Shown here piece by piece: positions 4,287 through 63,978 of a stretch of 64,000 bases of DNA. The stretch spans positions 32,001 to 96,000 of IMG/VR virus record IMGVR_UViG_3300022751_000016. The stretch is one strand, 5' to 3'. Position numbers and translations under genes: made by a program. The notes beneath the pieces were generated by a model, which was not told the origin of the DNA, searched no databases, and was given only the letters and a program-made list of their open reading frames with translations. The stretch's first letter is position 1. The number at the start of each line of letters is the position of its first letter. The DNA is from a virus.

Positions 4287-4970
4287 ATGATTAACTCACC
4301 TAAGAAAGAGAACAAGGAAAAAAGAGTATTAAAAACAGAGCCTAAACTTAAGGTAGATTTAAACGAAGAACAAAAAGAGTTTGTAAAATTATTTTATGAA
4401 TTTGATGTTTGTTTTTTACATGGAGATTTTGGTTCTGGTAAATCTTTGGCAGCAGTCCACACAGCATTGTCGGCATTCAGAAAGAAACAGTTTAATAACA
4501 TATGGATTACCAGACCTATGCTAAAAAATTCTCTAGCTGCCCTTCCTGGAACACTTGAAGAAAAAATGTCACCTTATACTTTTCCAATTACACAAAATAT
4601 GGAAGTATGTCAAGGTAAAGAAATGACAGATAAAATGTTAAAAGAAGGTATGGTTAAAATAATGCCTATTGAAGTTGCAAAAGGATGCTCTTTTATTGAC
4701 TCAGTAGTTATAATTGATGAATATGAAGATATGACTTATGCAGATTTTAGAACAATTTTAACTAGATTATCTAAGGGAAGTAAAATGATTTTCTGCGGTT
4801 CAAAAGAGCAAATTGATAAGCAGATAGGTAAAAATAGTTGTATTTATGACACTATGAGACTAGAAAACTCTGGATTAGTAGGCTATAAAACATTAACAGC
4901 AAATCACAGAAATCCTATTTTGACAAATATTATAGATTTTTTAGAAAAAGATTTGCACAACTCAAAATAA
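4287..4970 (+). CDS. phoH: PhoH-family ATPase
   Basis: GDFGSGKS, ITRP, LPGTLEEKMSPY, IIDEYED, ILTRL...SKMIFCGSKEQID, NHRNP. Confidence 0.93.
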   Translation: MINSPKKENKEKRVLKTEPKLKVDLNEEQKEFVKLFYEFDVCFLHGDFGSGKSLAAVHTALSAFRKKQFNNIWITRPMLKNSLAALPGTLEEKMSPYTFPITQNMEVCQGKEMTDKMLKEGMVKIMPIEVAKGCSFIDSVVIIDEYEDMTYADFRTILTRLSKGSKMIFCGSKEQIDKQIGKNSCIYDTMRLENSGLVGYKTLTANHRNPILTNIIDFLEKDLHNSK

Positions 4971-4983
4971 ATTATTATATTTG
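4952..4983 (+). promoter_or_regulatory. Bacteroidota-type promoter driving the non-coding region
   Basis: TTTG (4952-4955), N20, TATATTTG (4976-4983); perfect consensus. Confidence 0.75.
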
Positions 4984-4986
4984 CAT

Positions 4987-5340
4987 AAGAAAGATAGGTA
5001 AAAACACTTTTCGGCTTTTTGGTAATACGTGTGCTGTATTCTGGTAACAGGATTAAACCTTATAACAACGTGTGATGTGGATGAGTGACCACAAATCTTT
5101 CTTTTTTAACTTTTTCGCGCAAAAATAACAGTCATTTGAACTTAACACTAGGATAATGACAAGCGATTGGACAAAGTTAAGTGTCACGAATTGCCCTGTA
5201 ACAGCTAAATGTTGCCAGTTAGAGTAGGTCTGAGACTATTATGTGAAGCTCTAACATTTTTTATCGGTATCATCCCCTGTGATAGTATCTAAGGGCTAGT
5301 AGGAGTTGCATGTTAATACCGAGTGTGTAATCCTACTTAT
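4987..5340 (+). ncRNA. Putative structured ncRNA(s): three stem-closed modules with a kissing loop and a pseudoknot
   Basis: ORF-free, starts just after the promoter. Stems include AAGAAAGAT/ATCTTTCTT, GTCATT/AATGAC, GTTAGAG/CTCTAAC, TCGGTAT/ATACCGA and AGTAGGA/TCCTACT; each module ends at a U-rich tract. Confidence 0.55.
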
Positions 5341-5365
5341 TTTTATAAAATGTAATATCAAATAG

Positions 5366-6148
5366 ATGAAAACACAAGGACAAGGTTTTAACTATAAAGT
5401 AAACGGCGAAAATAAAACTAAAGAAGAGATTGATAATATGGACTTAAGTAATATGAATTGTACAGTTGATGGTTTATCTGTTCTATATTCTTTTCCCGAC
5501 CAAAATTATATTAGGCATTTTGTAGAAATTAAGGAGAAAATAAAACTACAAGAACTAAGAGATTATTTGATAACAGATAATATTATTTGTACAGACCTGA
5601 GCACAATATATGGTATAATGTCCGCAGAAACAGAAGATGAGTTAAAAGATATTCTTAAGAAGTTACCAGAGACAAATACGCGGCTAGAAAAAGAGATAAT
5701 CAGAACAAAAACTGAAGAAATTCTAGATGAAGTTGAAAAATACCAACAAGAAGTTAACGGAGGTATTTTAAAAGGAGAAGAGTTTCCATACGATTTTACA
5801 AATTTAAACTTTAATGTAATTACAAGTAGTAATATAGAAGAAAATGAGACAATAGAATATTTCCAAGGAATAAAAGAAACAGAAGGTAAATTAGACTATT
5901 CAGAAATAAATTTCAGGTTATTAGATTTAATGGCTAAAAGATTTATGGATAACAAGGTTAAATATCCTAAAGGTAACTCTAAAAAAGTATTAGATAAAAA
6001 TGAAATTCTTTGGGCGGCATTCAGACACATTAGAAAGATGATTCAACCTATTGAAAATGACCCAGAAACTTATGAAGACCATCTTTCTGCTGTTTTAACT
6101 AACATGAGTATTATTTTAGACCAATTAGATTTGGATAAGTCAAAATAA
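5366..6148 (+). CDS. Protein with C-terminal dATP/dGTP diphosphohydrolase-like (DUF5664) domain
   Basis: GIKETEGKLDYSEI...KVKYPKGN...AAFRHI...DHLSAVLTN pattern. Confidence 0.65.
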   Translation: MKTQGQGFNYKVNGENKTKEEIDNMDLSNMNCTVDGLSVLYSFPDQNYIRHFVEIKEKIKLQELRDYLITDNIICTDLSTIYGIMSAETEDELKDILKKLPETNTRLEKEIIRTKTEEILDEVEKYQQEVNGGILKGEEFPYDFTNLNFNVITSSNIEENETIEYFQGIKETEGKLDYSEINFRLLDLMAKRFMDNKVKYPKGNSKKVLDKNEILWAAFRHIRKMIQPIENDPETYEDHLSAVLTNMSIILDQLDLDKSK

Positions 6149-17340: not shown

Positions 17341-17643
17341 AAATAATAAAAACTATGAAAATAAAATACCCAACATTAACTGAGATTAAATATGAAGATT
17401 TATCACAAGAACAGTTGATAGGGTTAAATAATTTATTAAAAATACAGCCGACTACTTCAAAAAGTACAATTATATACATTCCTAAAAATAGGTATTTAAT
17501 ATATTAGACGTTTTAAGGCAATATTTTTATATAAGTTATAACATTATACCAGAAAACTACAAACGTTTCTTAAAATGCCTAAAAAATAGTAAATTTTAAA
17601 TCATTGAATATATTTATAAACATAATTCGGCGGGAAAAGAAAA

Positions 17644-17810
17644 GTTACACAGAAAATAACCAATTTGCACATAAAACATATAATCACTATATTTACACTG
17701 TAGATTGAAAGTACGAACTCAGCCTACATAGAAAGCATTTAAAAAATAATTTGGAGAAAGTCTCTACATCTACTGTTCGTACCAGTGGTTGTTTAGACTT
17801 TTTCTGTTTT
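17644..17810 (+). promoter_or_regulatory. Promoter + kissing-hairpin leader (copy A)
   Basis: TTTG (17664)-N20-TATATTTA. Hairpin-1 loop GTACGAAC (17711-17718) is complementary to GTTCGTAC (17775-17782) at the apex of hairpin 2. U-tract, then ATG 17824. Confidence 0.7.
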
Positions 17811-17823
17811 ATATAAAATTATT

Positions 17824-18921
17824 ATGGCACAAATATTAAAAATTCAGGATTTAATAGGTACAACTTACAATAGATTTACTATATTAGAAGAAGGTGCAAG
17901 GCATGTTGAGCCTAACGGTAAAAGACAAAGAGTTATGATATGCGAGTGCTCTTGTGGAACTATTAAAAACATAATGTTAAAAGAGTTAAGAAAAGGCACT
18001 ACTAAATCTTGTGGCTGCCTAGCCGAAGAAATTAAAATAAATATTCAAGAAGGGGATATATTTACTCATTGGACAGTTTTAAATGAAACGGAAGGTTACT
18101 TTAGCAAAAATGGAGAGAAATCAGATAGAGCCTTTAACTGCATTTGTGTTTGTGGTAAAAAGAAGAGTGTAAATAGAAACTCTTTAACTACAGGTCAATC
18201 TAAAAGTTGTGGCTGCCAAGGAAGAGTTAAAAAAGAGAAAGAAGTAAAAATAAAAGCAATACCTGAAAATACAGATTTAGAGATATGGAAAGAGTCCTTT
18301 ACATTTCCAGATTATTATATAAGTAATTTAGGTAAAGCTTACTCCTATAAATCACAAGTTTATCTTAAAGACGCTGAATCGTTTAAAATACAAGATACTG
18401 ATGTATCAAAAATAAAAGAGCTATATAGAACTTTCTATGGTGCATATAATGAAAAATATACCAGTTTGTTTTATGAAGGAGAACCTTGCGCGGAAAACAT
18501 AAGAACAAGAGAGGCAAATACAGAAAGAGCTATTAAGCTAAAAGGGGTTTACAGCAGTATGTATAGTAGATGTTATAGAGTGGAAAATAAATCATACCCA
18601 ACTTACGGAGCTAAAGGAGTAAAAATTGAAGAGTCATTCGACACATTTAATAAATTTTTTGATTGGGCTATAAACAACGGGTATAAGGAAGGATTGGAAA
18701 TAGACAGGATAGAATCAGATAAAGGATATTGTTCTTCTAATTGTAGATTTATTACTAAAGAGGAAAATAATCTTAGAGGTAAGTTTATAAATTTGACCTT
18801 AGCTGATGTAAAATGGATTAGGTCTGATGAATTTACTTATGAGAAGGCACTTGATAAATTTACTTGTTCTAGAAAGGTGATATCGAATATTAGAAATTAT
18901 ATAACTTTTAAAGATATTTGA
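17824..18921 (+). CDS. Free-standing HNH homing endonuclease with repeated Cys-rich DNA-binding modules
   Basis: Two CxCxCG...L..G..KSCGC repeats, NUMOD4-like EIWKE...YYISNLG, C-terminal M..RCY...YG.KGV...EIDRI....GY...NCRFIT..EN. Confidence 0.85.
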   Translation: MAQILKIQDLIGTTYNRFTILEEGARHVEPNGKRQRVMICECSCGTIKNIMLKELRKGTTKSCGCLAEEIKINIQEGDIFTHWTVLNETEGYFSKNGEKSDRAFNCICVCGKKKSVNRNSLTTGQSKSCGCQGRVKKEKEVKIKAIPENTDLEIWKESFTFPDYYISNLGKAYSYKSQVYLKDAESFKIQDTDVSKIKELYRTFYGAYNEKYTSLFYEGEPCAENIRTREANTERAIKLKGVYSSMYSRCYRVENKSYPTYGAKGVKIEESFDTFNKFFDWAINNGYKEGLEIDRIESDKGYCSSNCRFITKEENNLRGKFINLTLADVKWIRSDEFTYEKALDKFTCSRKVISNIRNYITFKDI

Positions 18922-28742: not shown

Positions 28743-29802
28743 ATTATGATAGATTTAAACATTTGCAAGAAAGGTGATATTTTAATATCAAAACACGGAG
28801 AAAAGTTAACTTACGTAAGAAAATTAAATCCTGAAATTGATTATTATGACCATGAAGTTTCATATAATAGTGAGCTGTTAGGAAATGGAACACGAACTAA
28901 TGATGGATTTGTAATGAGAAATGAAAAGTCAAGATTAGAGAGTGACCACGACATAGTAGAAATAATTCATATTTAATGAACAATAAACAACTAAAATGCA
29001 CAATTAATTTTCATCTAAAAATACTGCTAACATACCAACAAAGTTATAAAAAGACAGATGATATTTATATAGAAGCTTACAACTATTTAAAACAACATGA
29101 GCTTAACGACTCACAAAAAGAAATATTATATGAAAGATATATTGAAGATAGCAAGACAAGAGTATCCTAAAGGAACATTATTTTATTCGGCTACAGGCAA
29201 CTTAAAGTCCCCACTTAGAGTAAGTTCTTTACAGATTAGCGAAGTTTACAAAGGAACCATAATTAACACTGAGGGAGGAATTATCTATGATAATGGAACT
29301 TACGCAAAGAAAGTATAACATGGGAGGAGTAATATTACATTTGGCTATTGTAGCTGTTATGGGTTGGTTATTATATAACACTGAAACTTAGAAACTATGG
29401 GAAATCCGAAACTTTACGGGCAATATCAAGGAGATAGACATTTTATAGAAGTTACTCCAGAGAACGAAGATAAAATATTTTTAAAAACTAAAAATAAGAT
29501 GTCACATTTGACACCCAAAAAGAAAAAACGTAAAAAATGAAAACAAGAGATAGAGCTTTAACTTGGTATAACAGCATGGGCAGAACAAAAAGAGAAGAGC
29601 TGTCTATAGATTATTACGGTTCTACATTACTAGATGATGTTGAGATAATAGAGATGTATTTTGAAGAAGTACCACATAAAAATTTAGAAGAAACAGTTGC
29701 TTTTCTTAAACTTTTTGCCGAGAAATTTGTAGCTAATACAGACACAGCTTATAAGGATAGAGAAATTAGAGAGTGGATTAATGAAAATTTAATTAGTTAA
29801 TT

Positions 29803-30516
29803 ATGGAACAGTTTAAAAGAGCAAAGGTAATAATGTTACCAACAGAATCCTTTATACCAGGATCATTAATACAGCACTCAGATAATAAAAAATTACAATT
29901 AATTACAAATTCTAATTTTGATGAAGAAGATGCTAAACATTTAATTACAACTAAATGGAATACAGCTTTCAATATTTATATTATTTCAGATGATAAAATA
30001 AAAGAAGGTGATTATTTTATTAATGATGATGTTATTTTAAAATGTACTGGATTTAATCAACATTATATATTATCAGAAGATAAGTATGGATTAACATATT
30101 CACCAGCAGATTCTAATAAAATTATGGCTACAACAGATACTTCATTAGGATATTGGAAAGAAATAATGACTAAGGCAGGAGGAGATGAAGATACATTCTT
30201 CTCTTTACCTCAGCCTTCTCAACAATTCATTACTAAATATATTGAAGAATATAATAAAGGTAATATAATTACTGATGTGTTAGTTGAGTATGATATTACT
30301 TGGGTAGCTAATCATAATAATGGTTATCACTCTAAATCTTTAAAAATTAATCCTAAAGATAATACTATTAACATTAAATTAGAAGAAAAACATACTTACA
30401 CTAAAGAACAGCTAATCAAAGCTATGATTTGGGCGGAAAATAATGGAAAACATTATGTAGGTACAGATAAAGAAGGACAATTAGAACAGTTTAATGAGTA
30501 CATAAATAAACTTTAA
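29803..30516 (+). CDS. Hypothetical protein, variable phage family (paralog of 53487-54314)
   Basis: Shared IYIISDDKIKE/MYITSDEDIKE and KIMATTD/KIVLTTD blocks. Confidence 0.65.
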   Translation: MEQFKRAKVIMLPTESFIPGSLIQHSDNKKLQLITNSNFDEEDAKHLITTKWNTAFNIYIISDDKIKEGDYFINDDVILKCTGFNQHYILSEDKYGLTYSPADSNKIMATTDTSLGYWKEIMTKAGGDEDTFFSLPQPSQQFITKYIEEYNKGNIITDVLVEYDITWVANHNNGYHSKSLKINPKDNTINIKLEEKHTYTKEQLIKAMIWAENNGKHYVGTDKEGQLEQFNEYINKL

Positions 30517-31889: not shown

Positions 31890-32028
31890 GTCTAACGGTC
31901 TTCGGCTTGCTCGTCGTTGTGGCGAGTGAGAAACAATATTAACAAATAATCAAAAAACTTTAAATTATGCCTAAAAATTCAAACACAGACTCGAAGCCAC
32001 AATGCGTGCAAGCCGATGTTAGCAGTAG
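31890..32028. mobile_element. attC-like imperfect palindromic recombination site
   Basis: GTCTAAC (31890-31896) ... GTTAGCA (32018-32024) enclosing TCGGCTTGC/GCAAGCCGA, TTGTGGC/GCCACAA and CGAGT/ACTCG arms; the upstream gene's stop codon lies inside the TAAC box. Confidence 0.6.
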
Positions 32029-42859: not shown

Positions 42860-43039
42860 GTTACAGAAAAAATAACCAATTTGGAAAATAGAATGATATT
42901 AAGTATATTTGCAGGACATAATAGAAATACAAGATTTAGACTCTCACCTCTAAAATCGTAAAGATAATAAGTATAAAAACTTAGGAAACTAACGGACAGG
43001 AAAGATGGGTGAGAGCTCTTTTCGTCCGTTTTTTGTTTT
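42860..43039 (+). promoter_or_regulatory. Promoter + kissing-hairpin leader (copy B)
   Basis: TTTG (42880)-N20-TATATTTG. Loop CTCTCACC (42941-42948) is complementary to loop GGTGAGAG (43008-43015) of hairpin AACGGAC/GTCCGTT, which is followed by a U-tract. Confidence 0.72.
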
Positions 43040-43700
43040 ATATGGATTCTATTTCTGCCAATTATACGTGACTTGATGTTAATATCATCGTATATCCTTC
43101 TAATTATTTTAGTCGGCGTCAAAGGGAAGAGTGAGCTATTTAATAGTTATCTACGCCTGAGTATAGGGGAGTTTTACGCATTTATGTATACCTTTATCCT
43201 GTTGGCAATTTAATTGTTGATAGAGGTCAGTTTCTCCCCACTTCACAAAGCAGATAGTTACTAAATTAAAAAGGATTTCAGAAATTCACTTCATGCGATG
43301 GAGTAAACAAAATAACTGAGGATTCTCAAAAGGAGTCTAACTCTGAGGGCTTGGGGGCTTGCCCTATATTTATCTTAATTAATTATATCGCAATTAGTAA
43401 ATTGTTTTCACTGCAAAGCTTTAGTATGTCGCCAAAACTATAGTTCGGCGGGAAAATATATAGATAAGTAAAAGCTTATAAAAATGGCGACAGAATATAC
43501 TACTTGCAGTGGATAGGTAATTAACAGTTTTGAATGTATTACTTAGTAGTTTATGTTGTGGCGGATTTATAGATGAAGATAGGAACGTATAAAACTGAAA
43601 GTATTAATTCCGCGCCACAAAAGAATATAAGTAAACAATCACAAACTGTAAAAAAACATTATATGAATTAGCGGGTATTTTAAGGGAAACTATGTTAAAT
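43040..43700. other. Long non-coding structured region (large ncRNA or replication-origin candidate)
   Basis: No convincing ORF; two long interrupted inverted repeats at 43409-43511 and 43524-43649. Confidence 0.45.
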
Positions 43701-43735
43701 TTTAAAATTTCTCTTGTTTAATCATAAATAAGGTG

Positions 43736-43743
43736 TATATTTG
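43736..43743 (+). promoter_or_regulatory. Promoter -7 box
   Basis: TATATTTG upstream of ATG 43767. Confidence 0.6.
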
Positions 43744-43766
43744 TAAAGAATTAAAAAAGTAAAATT

Positions 43767-47601: not shown

Positions 47602-48378
47602 ATGAGTAGAAGAAAAACTCCATTATTAAGTATACCTTCCTTGGCAGAAATGCAACAGGGAGGAGTATATAAATTTACAAACTCTATTAATGATTTTACC
47701 TATATTGGGAGTTGTAAAAAGTTCTCAGATAGATTAGCGGGGCATATTTGCGATTCTAAACGAGGCAAAGCAAATAGATATTTAATAGAGTTTGTAAATG
47801 ATTTTGGATGGGAAACTATTTCTTTTGAAATATTGGAAGTAGTTGAAGATTTCTCTTTATTAAAAACGCGGGAGAATCATTGGATAGGACTTTTTGATTT
47901 TAATTTATTATGGAATTGTGCACCAAAAGCAGACACTTTAGTAGGGACTAAGATGCCTTTGACACATAAAATTAAGAGTTCTGAAAGAATGAAAGGTAAT
48001 ACACTTAGCGTAGGTTATGTTCACTCTAAGGAGAAGGGTATAAAATGCGCAAAGTATTGGGAAGAGCACCCAAAAGAGAAGGAAGAAATGATTTCTAAAA
48101 ATAAAGAATCGCAGTCTAAGGTAGATAGGAGTTCTTGGGAAAAAGGAAAGATTATAGAAGTTTATTATGAAAAAGTCTTGATTGATACAGTAGAGGGATT
48201 AAAAAATGTAGAGACAAAATACAATTTAGGACATACCTATGCGAGTAAAATGTTACAAGGTAAGAAACCACCATTGAGGGGTTACTTTTTAAAAACAATA
48301 GGTTCTTATTTTATATCTGATAAAGTCTATATCAGAAGATATTTAAATGGAAAAGAAATAATAGAAAATAAATTATGA
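47602..48378 (+). CDS. GIY-YIG homing endonuclease with NUMOD3-like repeats
   Basis: GVYKFTN....TYIGS....RL..H, E ILE, REN.WI, N; followed by GTKMP..HK.K.SE.MKG repeats. Confidence 0.85.
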   Translation: MSRRKTPLLSIPSLAEMQQGGVYKFTNSINDFTYIGSCKKFSDRLAGHICDSKRGKANRYLIEFVNDFGWETISFEILEVVEDFSLLKTRENHWIGLFDFNLLWNCAPKADTLVGTKMPLTHKIKSSERMKGNTLSVGYVHSKEKGIKCAKYWEEHPKEKEEMISKNKESQSKVDRSSWEKGKIIEVYYEKVLIDTVEGLKNVETKYNLGHTYASKMLQGKKPPLRGYFLKTIGSYFISDKVYIRRYLNGKEIIENKL

Positions 48379-60731: not shown

Positions 60732-62756
60732 ATGGATTTAGATAATATTTACTGTGGTGATTTGGAATCTGATAATTTAGCAGAGGATGTTACTAAAATA
60801 CACGTACTAAGTATTGCTTGGAAAAGTGATGGAGTGTGGAAAATAAAATCTACACCTAACTATGATGATATGCGAAAATTATTATCTGACCCTACAAAAG
60901 TTATTGCAATACATAATGGAATTAGATTCGATGGTAGAGTTTTAGAGCAGATACTTGGTATAGAGATAAAAGCAACTATTATTGATACACTAGCTTTAGC
61001 TTGGTACATAGATTGTGCTAGAGGTAAGGAAGGTAAAAAGTATGGTTTAGCGTACTACGGGGAAGATACTTTTAATACTCCAAAGCCAAAGATTGATGAT
61101 TGGGAGAATCTAACCTATGAAGAGTATAAATTTCGTTGTGAGGAGGATACCAAAATAACCTATCAACTTTGGGAGTATCTACTCTTAAAATTAAGAGCTG
61201 TTTATGACAACGACGAAGATATTGTCAGAGTTATAAAATACCTTAATTTTATCATGCTTTGCGCCAGAAAACAAGAAGAACAAAAGATTCAAGTTGATTT
61301 AGAAAAATTAGAAAGTAATTTAAAATATTTTGAGGCATTAAAAGAAGAAAAAATTAAACAGCTTATTGAGGCAATGCCTAAAATTCCTAACAAAATAACA
61401 AAAAACAGACCTAGTACTTATCATAAAAAAGATGGTTCTCTTTCTAAAGCTGCCGAAGAGTGGGAAAATATGCTAACTTCTTGTAACTTACCAAAAGATT
61501 ATAGTGGAAGTATAGATGTCATAAAATCTTATGAATTAGGAAACCCAAACTCAGTGAAACAAAAAAAAGATTGGTTGTATAGCTTAGGTTGGATTCCTCA
61601 AACATTTGTGCACAATAGAGACAAGCAGACAGGAGATGTAAAGAAAGTGGAACAAATACTTACAGAAGAGAAAATGCTTTGCCCAAGCGTCTTAAAACTA
61701 GTTGAAAAAGAACCTGCAATTGAATTGCTAGATGGACTTTCAGTTCTTACCCATAGAATTGGAATATTTAAGGGATTGCAGAAAGCAGTTGATAAAAATG
61801 GATTTGTTATACAAGGTTTAATGCAGTTGGCGGTAAGTCTTCGCTGGCAACACGCCCTGATTGTAAACTATCCTCGCGTTACAGGTAAAGGAGACATCAG
61901 GGATGGTAAATGGATTAGGGAGTGTCTAATAGCTGGGAAAGGTTATAAATTTGTACAGAGTGACCTTAGTGGAATTGAATCAAGGACATCCGACCACTAC
62001 ACGTTCAATCTGAATAGAGAACTAATCGAAGAAACGCAGAGACCATTTTTTGACCCACACACAAAAATTTCTGTTGTTAGTAACTTAATGACGGAAGATG
62101 AAGAAATATGGTTTAAGTGGAAGAAGGAGAATAAAGAGAGGAAAGAAAAGGGGATAGAAGAGGACTTACCTCCTGAAGCTTTTGGGACACCCTCAGATAA
62201 TTTTTACATACTCCAAGATTTAGATAAGGATGAAAGTAAGAAGTTAATGAACAGATTAAAAGAGGCTAGGAGTAAAGGAAAGACTTGTAACTACGCATCA
62301 CTCTACTTAGTTGGCAGTCAGACACTTGCTAGAAATTTAAACATTTCTAAGAAAGAAGCACAAGGACTAATAGATGCATATTGGAAAATTCATTGGGCAG
62401 TAAAAAAAGCTACGGAAAGTTTTGACATAAAAAAAGTAGGGGATGAGCTCTGGATATTAAATCCTATATCGAGATTCAGACATAATTTGCGTTTTGAAAA
62501 GGACTCCTTCTCGGTTGTAAACCAGTCGAGTGCAGTTTATTGCTTTAACATGTGGCTATATAACATAACTAGACTTGGAGCTTTTCCCATATTGCAGACC
62601 CATGATGACGAATTACTAAGATGTAAGGAAGAAGAAGTTGATAAGTACGTAGCTATAACCAATAAGGCAATGGAAAACTTGAATAAGCAGTTAAAGTTAA
62701 ATGTAGAATTAGCTTGTGAGGTACAAGTTGGTGATAACTTTGCAGAGACACACTAA
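60732..62756 (+). CDS. polA: Family A DNA polymerase with 3'-5' exonuclease domain
   Basis: Exo motifs DLE, HNG..FD, DTL, RC.ED; polymerase motif A SDLSGIESR, motif B RSKGKTCNYASLY, motif C THDD. Confidence 0.95.
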   Translation: MDLDNIYCGDLESDNLAEDVTKIHVLSIAWKSDGVWKIKSTPNYDDMRKLLSDPTKVIAIHNGIRFDGRVLEQILGIEIKATIIDTLALAWYIDCARGKEGKKYGLAYYGEDTFNTPKPKIDDWENLTYEEYKFRCEEDTKITYQLWEYLLLKLRAVYDNDEDIVRVIKYLNFIMLCARKQEEQKIQVDLEKLESNLKYFEALKEEKIKQLIEAMPKIPNKITKNRPSTYHKKDGSLSKAAEEWENMLTSCNLPKDYSGSIDVIKSYELGNPNSVKQKKDWLYSLGWIPQTFVHNRDKQTGDVKKVEQILTEEKMLCPSVLKLVEKEPAIELLDGLSVLTHRIGIFKGLQKAVDKNGFVIQGLMQLAVSLRWQHALIVNYPRVTGKGDIRDGKWIRECLIAGKGYKFVQSDLSGIESRTSDHYTFNLNRELIEETQRPFFDPHTKISVVSNLMTEDEEIWFKWKKENKERKEKGIEEDLPPEAFGTPSDNFYILQDLDKDESKKLMNRLKEARSKGKTCNYASLYLVGSQTLARNLNISKKEAQGLIDAYWKIHWAVKKATESFDIKKVGDELWILNPISRFRHNLRFEKDSFSVVNQSSAVYCFNMWLYNITRLGAFPILQTHDDELLRCKEEEVDKYVAITNKAMENLNKQLKLNVELACEVQVGDNFAETH

Positions 62757-62780
62757 AAAGTTAAGAAAATCTTAAATGAT

Positions 62781-62925
62781 TAGGAAGTGTAAAAATAAAG
62801 TTGTATATTAGCGTTTTAAATTTCTTGGCGGAGATTTTAATAGCAAAATTTTAAAATAAAAAACATAAATAAGAGACACCTGTATGATGCTACCGCCATA
62901 GCTGATTATAGGTGTTCTCGTTTAT
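62781..62925 (+). promoter_or_regulatory. Promoter + kissing-hairpin leader (copy C)
   Basis: -7 variant TATATTAG (62804-62811). Loop TGGCGG (62826-62831) is complementary to loop CCGCCA (62893-62898) of the long hairpin GAGACACCTGTA/TATAGGTGTTCTC. ATG at 62935. Confidence 0.65.
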
Positions 62926-62934
62926 AAAAATAAA

Positions 62935-63978
62935 ATGGAAATAACAAACCAACAAAAACAAGTATTACTAAGCGGTCTTTTAGGAGATGGAAGTATTAAA
63001 AGGTCACATGTGTCTTACAACTGTATGTATGAAGAATATATGCAATTTAAAAGAAGTTTACTAGGAAATTTAGCCAAATCAGAGGTTATTGAATCGGATA
63101 ATTTAGGTTACAAAAAAGGTTCTAAAATTTACACTTTTTCTGGTAAATTTAATTCATATGCAGATTCTCTAGTTAATAAAGATTTATCTGAAATGATTCA
63201 AGACTTAGATGAATTGGGACTGGCTCTCTGGGTTATGGATGATGGCTCACTTCACAAGAAGAATTATTTCTACAATATCAACACACATTCGTTTCCAAAA
63301 GAAGTTCAGGAAAAAGTATTAATTCCCGCCTTAAATAAATTTGGAATATATCCTAAAACAATGGTTGAAAATAAACCTGATGGAAGACAGTTTCATTATT
63401 TGTATATTTCAAAATGGAATGGTGCAATGATTATTTCTCGAATACTTAGAAACTATGCTGTAAATTGTTATAAATACAAACTCATACCTAAAGAAATTGA
63501 AGACGCTTACTTTAAACTAGATTTAGAAGTTTTCAATGCACTACCAACAGAGTATGCAAAAACAAGTTATTTATTAAAACAGAACGGAGTTCGACAAATG
63601 AGTGATTTACTAATGAATAATACAAAAGGTAAAGAGTACACTTACGAAGAATTAGACGAGTTATGGAATAAAACTTTTCCAAAAACAGATTGTGTCTTTT
63701 CTATATATGATTTTAAGAAAACAAAAGAAGGTGAGGATGAAAATGTCTTAATACCACAAGTTAATTTTTTAGATGAAAATCCTATTGTTAAGGGGTCTTT
63801 TAAATTGTCTTTTAACACTTGGAAATATGGTGAAACTTTTTATTCTATCGAGGGAAGGTCACTTACTTGGAAAACGCTTCTAGATATTATAGATAAACAT
63901 GGAGATGGACATCACATATTTTTAGAATTAATTGAAATTAAGAATAACAACGAAGTGTTTGTATTTTTAGGCAGTTAG
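62935..63978 (+). CDS. Free-standing LAGLIDADG homing endonuclease with C-terminal extension
   Basis: VLLSGLLGDGSI and GLALWVMDDGS motifs, INTHSF, YKLIP. Confidence 0.88.
   Translation: MEITNQQKQVLLSGLLGDGSIKRSHVSYNCMYEEYMQFKRSLLGNLAKSEVIESDNLGYKKGSKIYTFSGKFNSYADSLVNKDLSEMIQDLDELGLALWVMDDGSLHKKNYFYNINTHSFPKEVQEKVLIPALNKFGIYPKTMVENKPDGRQFHYLYISKWNGAMIISRILRNYAVNCYKYKLIPKEIEDAYFKLDLEVFNALPTEYAKTSYLLKQNGVRQMSDLLMNNTKGKEYTYEELDELWNKTFPKTDCVFSIYDFKKTKEGEDENVLIPQVNFLDENPIVKGSFKLSFNTWKYGETFYSIEGRSLTWKTLLDIIDKHGDGHHIFLELIEIKNNNEVFVFLGS

Follow-up and report, generated by a model that had tools for sequence, protein, structure and literature searches.

The stretch of DNA analysed here, termed the window, is 64,000 nt in length (positions 32,001–96,000 of IMG/VR virus record IMGVR_UViG_3300022751_000016) and is part of a single virus record of 142,450 bp, which looks like a lytic phage of the Bacteroidota type. 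It carries three copies of a structured leader in which two hairpins display apical loops that are exact reverse complements of each other. Two more copies are located outside the window, which gives five in the genome (A, B and C within the window, D and E outside it). On comparison of paralogous and orthologous leaders, the loop-loop pairing is a selected, strand-specific RNA feature. An initial annotation of the window had proposed three such loci with complementary loops that differ in sequence between copies. Direct reading of the sequence places copies A, B and C where they had been reported, and exact, copy-specific complementarity is found in all five copies; the total of three needs correction.

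Structure and specificity of the five copies

The architecture of copy A was modelled with RNAfold. Hairpin 1 (positions 17699–17728, plus strand) is present in both the minimum free energy (MFE) and the constrained folds and has a 10 nt loop that contains GUACGAAC (17711–17718). It begins near the predicted 5' end of the transcript. An A-rich linker (17729–17751), unpaired or weakly A-U paired in the folds, separates it from hairpin 2 (17752–17806), whose apical loop contains GUUCGUAC (17775–17782), the complement of the hairpin 1 loop. At the DNA level the two loop segments read GTACGAAC and GTTCGTAC. Hairpin 2 is long and imperfect, includes G-U pairs and has a delta G of about -21 kcal/mol; the terminator-like call is on its apical part. 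The duplex formed by the two loops has a computed value of -9.5 kcal/mol. A U/A-rich tail (17807–17823) lies between hairpin 2 and the start codon, an ATG at position 17824.

Copies B and C are on the same strand. In copy B, hairpin 1 (42933–42957) has an 8 nt loop, CUCUCACC (42941–42948), and is conserved in G001, an 18 kb contig of a related phage. Hairpin 2 of copy B (42992–43039), found both by folding and as a terminator call, has the loop GGUGAGAG (43008–43015) and is followed by a U tract at 43030–43039. The corresponding DNA segments are CTCTCACC and GGTGAGAG. In copy C, hairpin 1 (62811–62844, with a core at 62818–62837) presents UGGCGG at 62826–62831, and hairpin 2 (62873–62919) has a 6 nt loop, CCGCCA (62893–62898), a delta G of about -21 kcal/mol and a weak U run behind it. 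The MFE fold of copy C pairs two of the six loop bases of TGGCGG inside hairpin 1. Copy D (L005:7535–7707) is beyond the end of the window and has the loops CTGCGAA and TTCGCAG; with its open reading frame (ORF) it spans L005:7535–7833, i.e., genome positions 103535–103833. Copy E (L009:8860–9040) is before the start of the window and has the loops GTGGAAAG and CTTTCCAC; leader and gene together span L009:8860–9943, genome positions 28860–29943.

The complementary segments of copies A to C fall in or at the apical loops of hairpin 1 and the long hairpin 2. Comparison of the folds with those of shuffled sequences gives z-scores of -3.5 (A), -1.7 (B) and -3.45 (C). The start codon is 17 nt (A) or 15 nt (C) behind the core of hairpin 2. 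A U-rich run follows hairpin 2 in copies A, B, D and E and is weaker in C; in the same four copies a GC-containing hairpin with a direct U tract is present between promoter and start codon. A first terminator finder, which made 266 calls, was not strict enough; a simple terminator scan calls hairpin 2 of copies A and B. The linker, which had been described as approximately 25–35 nt, measures 13–31 nt and varies with how much of the AU-rich base of hairpin 2 is counted.

Two scans of the genome were made for chance occurrences of this arrangement, with the parallel-complement as decoy in the loose scan. The loose scan accepted any two weak hairpins with complementary loops, and the short AT-rich 6-mers that it found are no more common than in decoys. 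Because decoys were as rich as real matches, it was replaced by strict criteria: a hairpin 2 delta G of -15 kcal/mol or below, at least three G or C in the match and a linker of 10–40 nt, applied to the whole genome on both strands. The strict scan returns exactly five matches, which are copies A to E, all on the coding strand; the decoy has one. Within the 142 kb, each 8-mer of copies A and B is unique, as is its reverse complement, and the partners are 64 and 67 nt apart. When terminator-like hairpins are ranked by the match of the apical loop to the 100 nt upstream, copies D, A and B are at the top and E is seventh. The initial annotation had described the codes as orthogonal, and a register-free matrix agrees: the codes within the genome are mutually non-complementary. 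Such orthogonal codes may prevent cross-talk between copies.

Covariation among orthologous leaders

Homologues of the HNH protein encoded behind copy A were taken from metagenome assemblies and the contigs were then inspected for leaders. Together with the genome copies and IMG/VR relatives this gives 18 leaders with 14 distinct loop codes. A search of IMG/VR with the promoter-element pattern yielded G001 as the only true relative. Of the 118 metagenome stretches that match this pattern, nearly all are chance matches; only L075 is genuine, and it is identical to G001. There are no close relatives in the cultured-phage collection, and none was found when viral contigs were scanned with the single HNH, LAGLIDADG and helix-turn-helix (HTH) proteins.

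Leaders in front of HNH homologues have the same architecture and recognisably related stems, with other loop pairs. Loss of loop complementarity in homologous leaders had been named as a result that would speak against the pairing; these orthologues keep the pairing with other sequences. The codes of the HNH family are GGUCAAGC, GUGCGG, GUGCAG, CGUGCAGG, GGACG and CCGCCAAG. In the individual contigs the loop pairs are GGTCAAGC / GCTTGACC (L234), GTGCGG / CCGCAC (L137), GTGCAG / CTGCAC (L138 and L235), CGTGCAGG / CCTGCACG (L139), GGACG / CGTCC (L140/141) and CCGCCAAG / CTTGGCGG (L142/143, L146 and L239). A second nuclease family, of HNH / endonuclease VII-like proteins with zinc-finger repeats, follows the same pattern with the codes UUCGGACG, GGUCUGAA and GCUCUGAC; the loop pairs are TTCGGACG / CGTCCGAA in G002, GGTCTGAA / TTCAGACC in L242 and GCTCTGAC / GTCAGAGC in G003. 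Copy A and L234 have the hairpin 1 stem in common and differ at four of eight loop positions, each change being compensated in loop 2. L137 and L138 differ by a single A-U to G-C exchange.

The complementarity of cognate loops is 5–8 nt (mean 7.1), compared with 2.9 nt for non-cognate loops in a register-free matrix of 11 of the 14 distinct codes. None of 200,000 random permutations gave a derangement that reached the observed sum (78 observed, 46 at most). Computed loop-duplex energies across the leaders range from -6 to -13.5 kcal/mol. The loops of all nine HNH leaders are not brought into register by MAFFT; columns were counted on the four closest leaders, and the rest were compared by the register-free matrix. 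In the four-leader alignment pairing holds for 92.5% of cells overall and for 100% of the kissing helix, which includes one compensatory pair. Compensatory changes are also present at three of four pairs of the hairpin 2 apical stem and at two pairs of the lower stem. Sliding the partners by 1–3 columns decreases the pairing to 32–48%. As only four sequences were compared, this column-based covariation has no more than supporting value.

The sense strand gives a more stable fold than its reverse complement in 14 of 16 leaders, with a mean difference of 5.7 kcal/mol (Wilcoxon p = 0.0008). This folding advantage and the G-U pairs in the stems argue for an RNA rather than a DNA palindrome. The loop complementarity stops at the loop borders and never reaches either stem in the sequences and folds, which implies a loop-loop (pseudoknot) contact only, with no nested alternative helix or antiterminator. 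Comparison of the 5' part with hairpin 2 in the folds also did not reveal an antiterminator helix that competes with the terminator stem. The covariation for a loop-loop pseudoknot, first suggested from the three copies in the window, is thereby upheld in paralogues and orthologues and is strand-specific. The comparative evidence establishes the predicted loop-loop pairing, both hairpins and the strand specificity.

A chance origin of the complementarity, between unrelated hairpins in AT-rich DNA, agrees with the loose scan, where many complements of 6–7 nt arise between weak hairpins at about the frequency of the decoys. It does not agree with five real matches against one decoy in the strict scan, with the uniqueness of the 8-mers of copies A and B in the genome, with the covariation of orthologues or with a permutation test in which the observed value does not overlap the shuffled distribution. 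These sequence comparisons have already refuted it, and chance can be regarded as practically without weight.

A different element was seen in G002, a related 143 kb phage. At one end of that genome (minus strand, about 135.3–143.2 kb, L232/L233) there are approximately nine intergenic elements of 75–130 nt between small ORFs, and one is also present in G001 (L136:17798–17870). They have the conserved ends AACG ... CTGTTAT(A/G), followed by a T run, and fold into long nested hairpins with a large A-rich loop. None was found in the genome studied here. Candidates G2_a to G2_d of G002 were rejected as kissing leaders and assigned to this element with long nested hairpins, which is a separate undescribed element distinct from the kissing leader.

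Promoters, downstream genes and orphan units

The promoter of copy A (17645–17695) consists of a 22 nt upstream element, TTACACAGAAAATAACCAATTT, a -33 TTTG (17664–17667) and a -7 box, TATATTTA (17688–17695). That of copy B (42861–42911) reads TTACAGAAAAAATAACCAATTTG ... TATATTTG, and its upstream element and -7 box are nearly identical in G001. Both were read directly and match the promoter regular expression, and their boxes (-33 TTTG, -7 TAnnTTT(G/A)) are of the Bacteroidota type. Copy C has a -7-like box, TATATTAG (62804–62811), and TTAG at 62780, and the regular expression does not match it. The initial annotation, which gave a host-type promoter to all three loci, is therefore right for A and B, and copy C is a weaker match. 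In all orthologues the -7 box is 3–9 nt ahead of hairpin 1, which starts at about +1.

The 22 nt element, TTACA(C/G)A(G/A)AAA(A/G)TAA(C/T)(C/T)AATTT, overlaps the -33 box (e.g., window positions 17645–17666 and 42861–42882). About nine promoters of the genome carry it, on one strand or the other and mostly without a leader; it thus belongs to a general phage promoter and is not leader-specific. It may act as an UP-like element or be recognised by a phage regulator. Just upstream of the promoter in copy A and orthologues there is a short GC core with an A run behind it (TTCGGCGGGAAAA, TGCCGGAAAA, GCGCCGGAAAAAA, TTCGGCGAAA); sites are at window positions 17627–17640 and 43446–43458, L139:9811–9822, L140:4796–4808 and L235:1317–1328.

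Copy A precedes a gene for a 365 aa HNH homing endonuclease (17824–18921, plus strand) that matches phrog_374, HNH endonuclease, with E = 1e-48 and has homologues annotated as HNH endonuclease. The gene behind copy C (62935–63978, plus strand) encodes a LAGLIDADG homing endonuclease (Pfam LAGLIDADG_2, E = 1e-9; phrog_11023). A complete family-A DNA polymerase gene (60732–62756) ends 179 nt ahead of the LAGLIDADG gene. The LAGLIDADG cassette, including its leader, is free-standing and not intron-borne. Copy D is followed by a 41 aa ORF similar to the N-terminal zinc finger found in HNH / endonuclease VII-like nucleases. This ORF represents a truncated nuclease gene, so that the leader has outlived its nuclease gene. 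Copy E is followed by a gene for a 300 aa protein, with a Dam-type methyltransferase gene next in line. The 300 aa protein has phage HTH proteins as its nearest Atlas clusters; by these similarities it is not a nuclease, and E is the only copy in front of a non-nuclease gene.

Nucleases or their remnants are downstream of 14 of the 18 leaders: nine belong to the HNH family of copy A, four are endonuclease VII-like HNH proteins (including the remnant at copy D) and one is LAGLIDADG. One leader precedes the HTH gene, and three are orphans with unconserved, ORF-free DNA behind them. The leader is thus common to unrelated nuclease families, as had been proposed, and the HTH gene and the orphans show that it is not confined to nucleases. 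The association with homing endonucleases is strong but neither exclusive nor obligatory. HNH orthologues in L144/145, L240/241, L147, L148 and L243 have no leader, with a plain promoter or none. Neither of the two GIY-YIG homing endonuclease genes of this genome has a kissing leader. One (47602–48378) starts 4 nt after the preceding ORF; the other (minus strand, genome 128.1–129.1 kb, outside the window) has only the conserved promoter element and a single short terminator-like hairpin, 18 nt ahead of the ATG.

Leaders and nuclease genes are found in differing gene neighbourhoods across phages, as expected for mobile cassettes. Just upstream of HNH cassettes, with or without a kissing leader, there are runs such as TATACCCCC or their G-rich complements (L142:2800–2850, L234:582–625, L144:320–420 and L148:1310–1420). 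These runs could be a nuclease target or a junction sequence.

Unit B had been described as preceding a non-coding region, and approximately 720 nt without an ORF do follow it. This stretch (43040–43766, plus strand) is outside the conserved unit and is the largest ORF-free gap of the window. The G001 homologue of unit B has identical loops (CTCTCAC / GTGAGAG), and both arms of its hairpin 2 differ from those of unit B at many positions with the hairpin still predicted. The two copies are in different neighbourhoods: a PcfJ-like gene precedes unit B, and in G001 the PcfJ-like gene is directly followed by other genes. Conservation between the two ends just behind the U tract of hairpin 2. The conserved unit therefore consists of the promoter and two hairpins, and this fits an RNA that terminates at the U tract.

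The stretch behind unit B has no nucleotide or six-frame similarity to the equivalent approximately 770 nt of G001. Its GC content is 0.315, compared with 0.308 for the genome, and it folds no better than shuffled sequences (z = -0.84 and -1.49). The possibility that unit B is the head of a large structured non-coding RNA was rejected on these grounds, i.e., lack of conservation in G001, no protein-level remnant, average GC content and weak z-scores. The stretch may be the remains of a decayed nuclease gene. Another orphan leader (GTGATAAC / GTTATCAC), with ORF-poor DNA behind it, is present in G004.

A related arrangement was observed at window positions 4952–5365, where a canonical promoter is followed by an ORF-free leader of approximately 375 nt. 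The loop of its last terminator-like hairpin, ATACCGA (5316–5322), is complementary to an upstream TCGGTAT (5264–5270). The principle is similar, but TCGGTAT is in no clear hairpin loop. The gene behind this leader (5366–6148) has only a weak endolysin-like match.

Possible function and relation to known systems

We put the probability at about one half that the leader is a promoter-proximal attenuator formed by a kissing 5' hairpin and a terminator-like hairpin 2. In such an attenuator, a structured leader RNA of approximately 100–130 nt would be transcribed from a host-type promoter (Bacteroidota TTTG / TAnnTTTG). Near its 5' end a weak AU-rich hairpin 1 would expose a GC-rich sequence of 5–8 nt in its loop; after the A-rich linker, the long imperfect hairpin 2 and its U-rich run would form 4–19 nt ahead of the start codon. 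The apical loop of hairpin 2, an exact Watson-Crick complement of loop 1, would then produce an intramolecular kissing helix through which the 5' hairpin is fastened to the tip of the terminator-like hairpin. Together with its U-rich tail, hairpin 2 is a putative intrinsic terminator. Most transcripts, whether from the local promoter or from upstream read-in, would end there as a compact, kissing-locked small RNA, and the downstream gene, in most cases one for a homing endonuclease that could harm the phage, would be expressed by read-through alone. Attenuation would in this way keep selfish genes at a low level. The kissing helix may set or stabilise the decision, through terminator folding or efficiency or through stability of the terminated RNA. 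As each copy has its own code, paralogous leaders in one cell would pair only with themselves.

The U-rich tails and terminator-like calls of hairpin 2 favour this proposal, as does the end of the conservation between unit B and G001 just behind the U tract. Several observations weigh against it. The U run is weak in copy C, G2e and L142. An efficient terminator between promoter and gene in a co-directional array would be polar on downstream genes, and the promoter regular expression found no canonical promoter between the HNH gene and the next gene. We know of no established effect of an apical-loop kissing contact on intrinsic termination. The scaling of linker length with stem lengths that is expected of a rigid coaxial kissing complex was not found. 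Hairpin 1 is marginal in L142 and L146, where a single-stranded 5' partner is possible. Unit B is conserved as an orphan, with no conserved downstream gene, and fits a free-standing small RNA equally or better.

A small RNA gene of this type, the product of which would act in trans on its own nascent or read-through copies through loop-loop contacts or dimerisation, is a tentative alternative to attenuation in cis. By analogy with the short and long isoforms of IsrK or with the P4 CI RNA, it could provide private, dose-dependent feedback for each cassette. Unit B is conserved with G001 from promoter to U tract with unalignable DNA behind it and different neighbourhoods, a further orphan is present in G004, complementary loops allow pairing between molecules too, the codes are orthogonal, and IsrK and P4 CI provide precedents (PMC4825925). 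The distance of hairpin 2 from the start codon in 15 of 18 leaders is, however, that of a 5' untranslated region (UTR) and not of a neighbouring gene, and the A-rich linker of 13–31 nt permits an intramolecular contact that should outcompete pairing in trans. It is also possible that no termination occurs and that the kissing-locked hairpins are a 5' UTR module that shields the 5' end of the mRNA from decay, an explanation that appears unlikely. Such a module might also offer the A-rich linker and AU-rich tail as a landing site for the ribosome (S1) in a non-Shine-Dalgarno host. Terminal hairpins at the 5' end stabilise bacterial mRNAs, and the start of hairpin 1 at about +1 in all orthologues, the weak U runs of several members and the AU-rich, unpaired region between hairpin 2 and the ATG are in accord with this role, which also avoids the polarity problem of a terminator within an operon. 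It does not account for the conservation of orphan units that have no gene, for canonical U tracts directly behind a GC-containing stem in four of the five genome copies or for orthologous nucleases that manage without a leader.

A role at the DNA level, with the palindrome-embedded inverted repeats as protein-binding or recombination sites of a mobile nuclease cassette, is very improbable. An inverted repeat keeps complementarity by definition, the units behave as cassettes in different neighbourhoods, and the loop-to-loop distance is 61–71 bp in 10 of the 15 leaders measured (43–57 or 74 bp in the other five). Yet no single protein could read 14 different sequences, and the unit is also carried by orphans and the HTH gene. 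The G-U pairs in stems and strand-asymmetric folds are not expected of a DNA site, every copy is on the transcribed strand directly behind a promoter, and compensatory substitutions in two separate segments of 6–8 bp need selection for pairing and not two protein sites. A more far-reaching and rather doubtful proposal is that the leaders are orthogonal, self-addressed riboregulators, with a private code for each cassette. The RNA released at hairpin 2 would switch its own termination in cis or in trans, and mobile genes would be dosed independently without a protein regulator.

The initial annotation did not recognise the leader as a described motif, and neither the window nor the remaining genome has an Rfam 15 match at the gathering threshold. 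Rfam 15 includes the C4 antisense RNA, pRNA, cobalamin riboswitches, known leaders and small RNAs. Permissive E-values gave only sub-threshold noise for the leaders and orthologues, e.g., S15-Flavobacteria with 25 bits (46.5 needed) and TEG147 with 34 bits (56 needed). No description of such a leader came up in full-text literature searches on phage kissing loops associated with terminators, leaders or homing endonucleases. It is new as an RNA family, and the kind itself, a structured leader or attenuator with a kissing loop, is known. None of the nearest analogues has a 5' hairpin that kisses the loop of a leader terminator with a copy-specific code, nor a common sequence or architecture.

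The specificity of the P1/P7 c4 RNA between related phages resides in a few loop bases. In the related CI RNA (seqA/seqB/seqC) of the immunity leader of satellite phage P4, a promoter-proximal sense-encoded element pairs with complementary parts of the same transcript and produces premature termination (PMC4825925). Complementarity within one transcript is present in the leaders here. They differ from these RNAs in that neither sequence nor covariance models give a match, a processing signal is absent and each genome has several orthogonal copies. Here the apical loop of the terminator-like hairpin itself serves as the partner, at a distance of about 65 nt, and the setting is a lytic-looking Bacteroidota-type phage with homing endonuclease genes downstream. 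IsrK of the Gifsy-1 prophage has a promoter-proximal terminator that yields a short RNA and a read-through mRNA, and the short RNA pairs with the long (PMC4825925). Unlike the leader here, it is a single locus that uses alternative secondary structures rather than complementary loops, and no homology was found.

Fully complementary loops of 6–8 nt nucleate RNA-RNA contact near a leader terminator in the antisense-RNA attenuation of plasmids pT181 and pIP501 and in the ColE1 RNA I-RNA II system. Different replicons have different loop sequences, and the partners are opposite-strand transcripts that act in trans. In the leaders one sense transcript carries both loops, so that complementarity can be kept only by compensatory mutation. 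The L5-L13 contact of cobalamin riboswitches is in cis: a loop of the upstream domain kisses the hairpin loop of the expression platform. The leaders have no ligand-binding aptamer, hairpin 1 being a simple AU-rich stem-loop, and no Rfam match. In phage phi29, two complementary loops of the pRNA covary between related phages and form 4 nt intermolecular pairings in a ring on the packaging motor; the pRNA has one gene per genome, whereas the leaders are multi-copy and without an Rfam match. The T4 I-TevI gene has a single upstream hairpin that occludes the ribosome-binding site of the homing endonuclease gene and is bypassed by a late promoter. The leaders instead combine two hairpins and a U-rich tail with a loop-loop tertiary contact, and their host group, the Bacteroidota, initiates translation without Shine-Dalgarno pairing.

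To our knowledge, very little is known about the control of free-standing homing endonuclease genes outside T4-like phages, and nothing for Bacteroidota phages. As an RNA motif the leader is compact, occurs in several copies and accompanies nuclease cassettes from three unrelated families. Sequence evidence alone gives its tertiary contact unusually good support, in the form of many different codes and clean compensatory changes. Even as no more than a stabilising fold, the leader adds a new, curated RNA family and can help to mark nuclease cassettes in metagenomic phage genomes. If the leader controls termination or RNA fate, it would represent a new regulatory principle for mobile genes and a ready set of orthogonal kissing-loop pairs for RNA engineering. 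Should the leaders prove to be self-addressed riboregulators, the code would be free to drift by compensatory change and the family would therefore be a natural library of programmable RNA-RNA switches.

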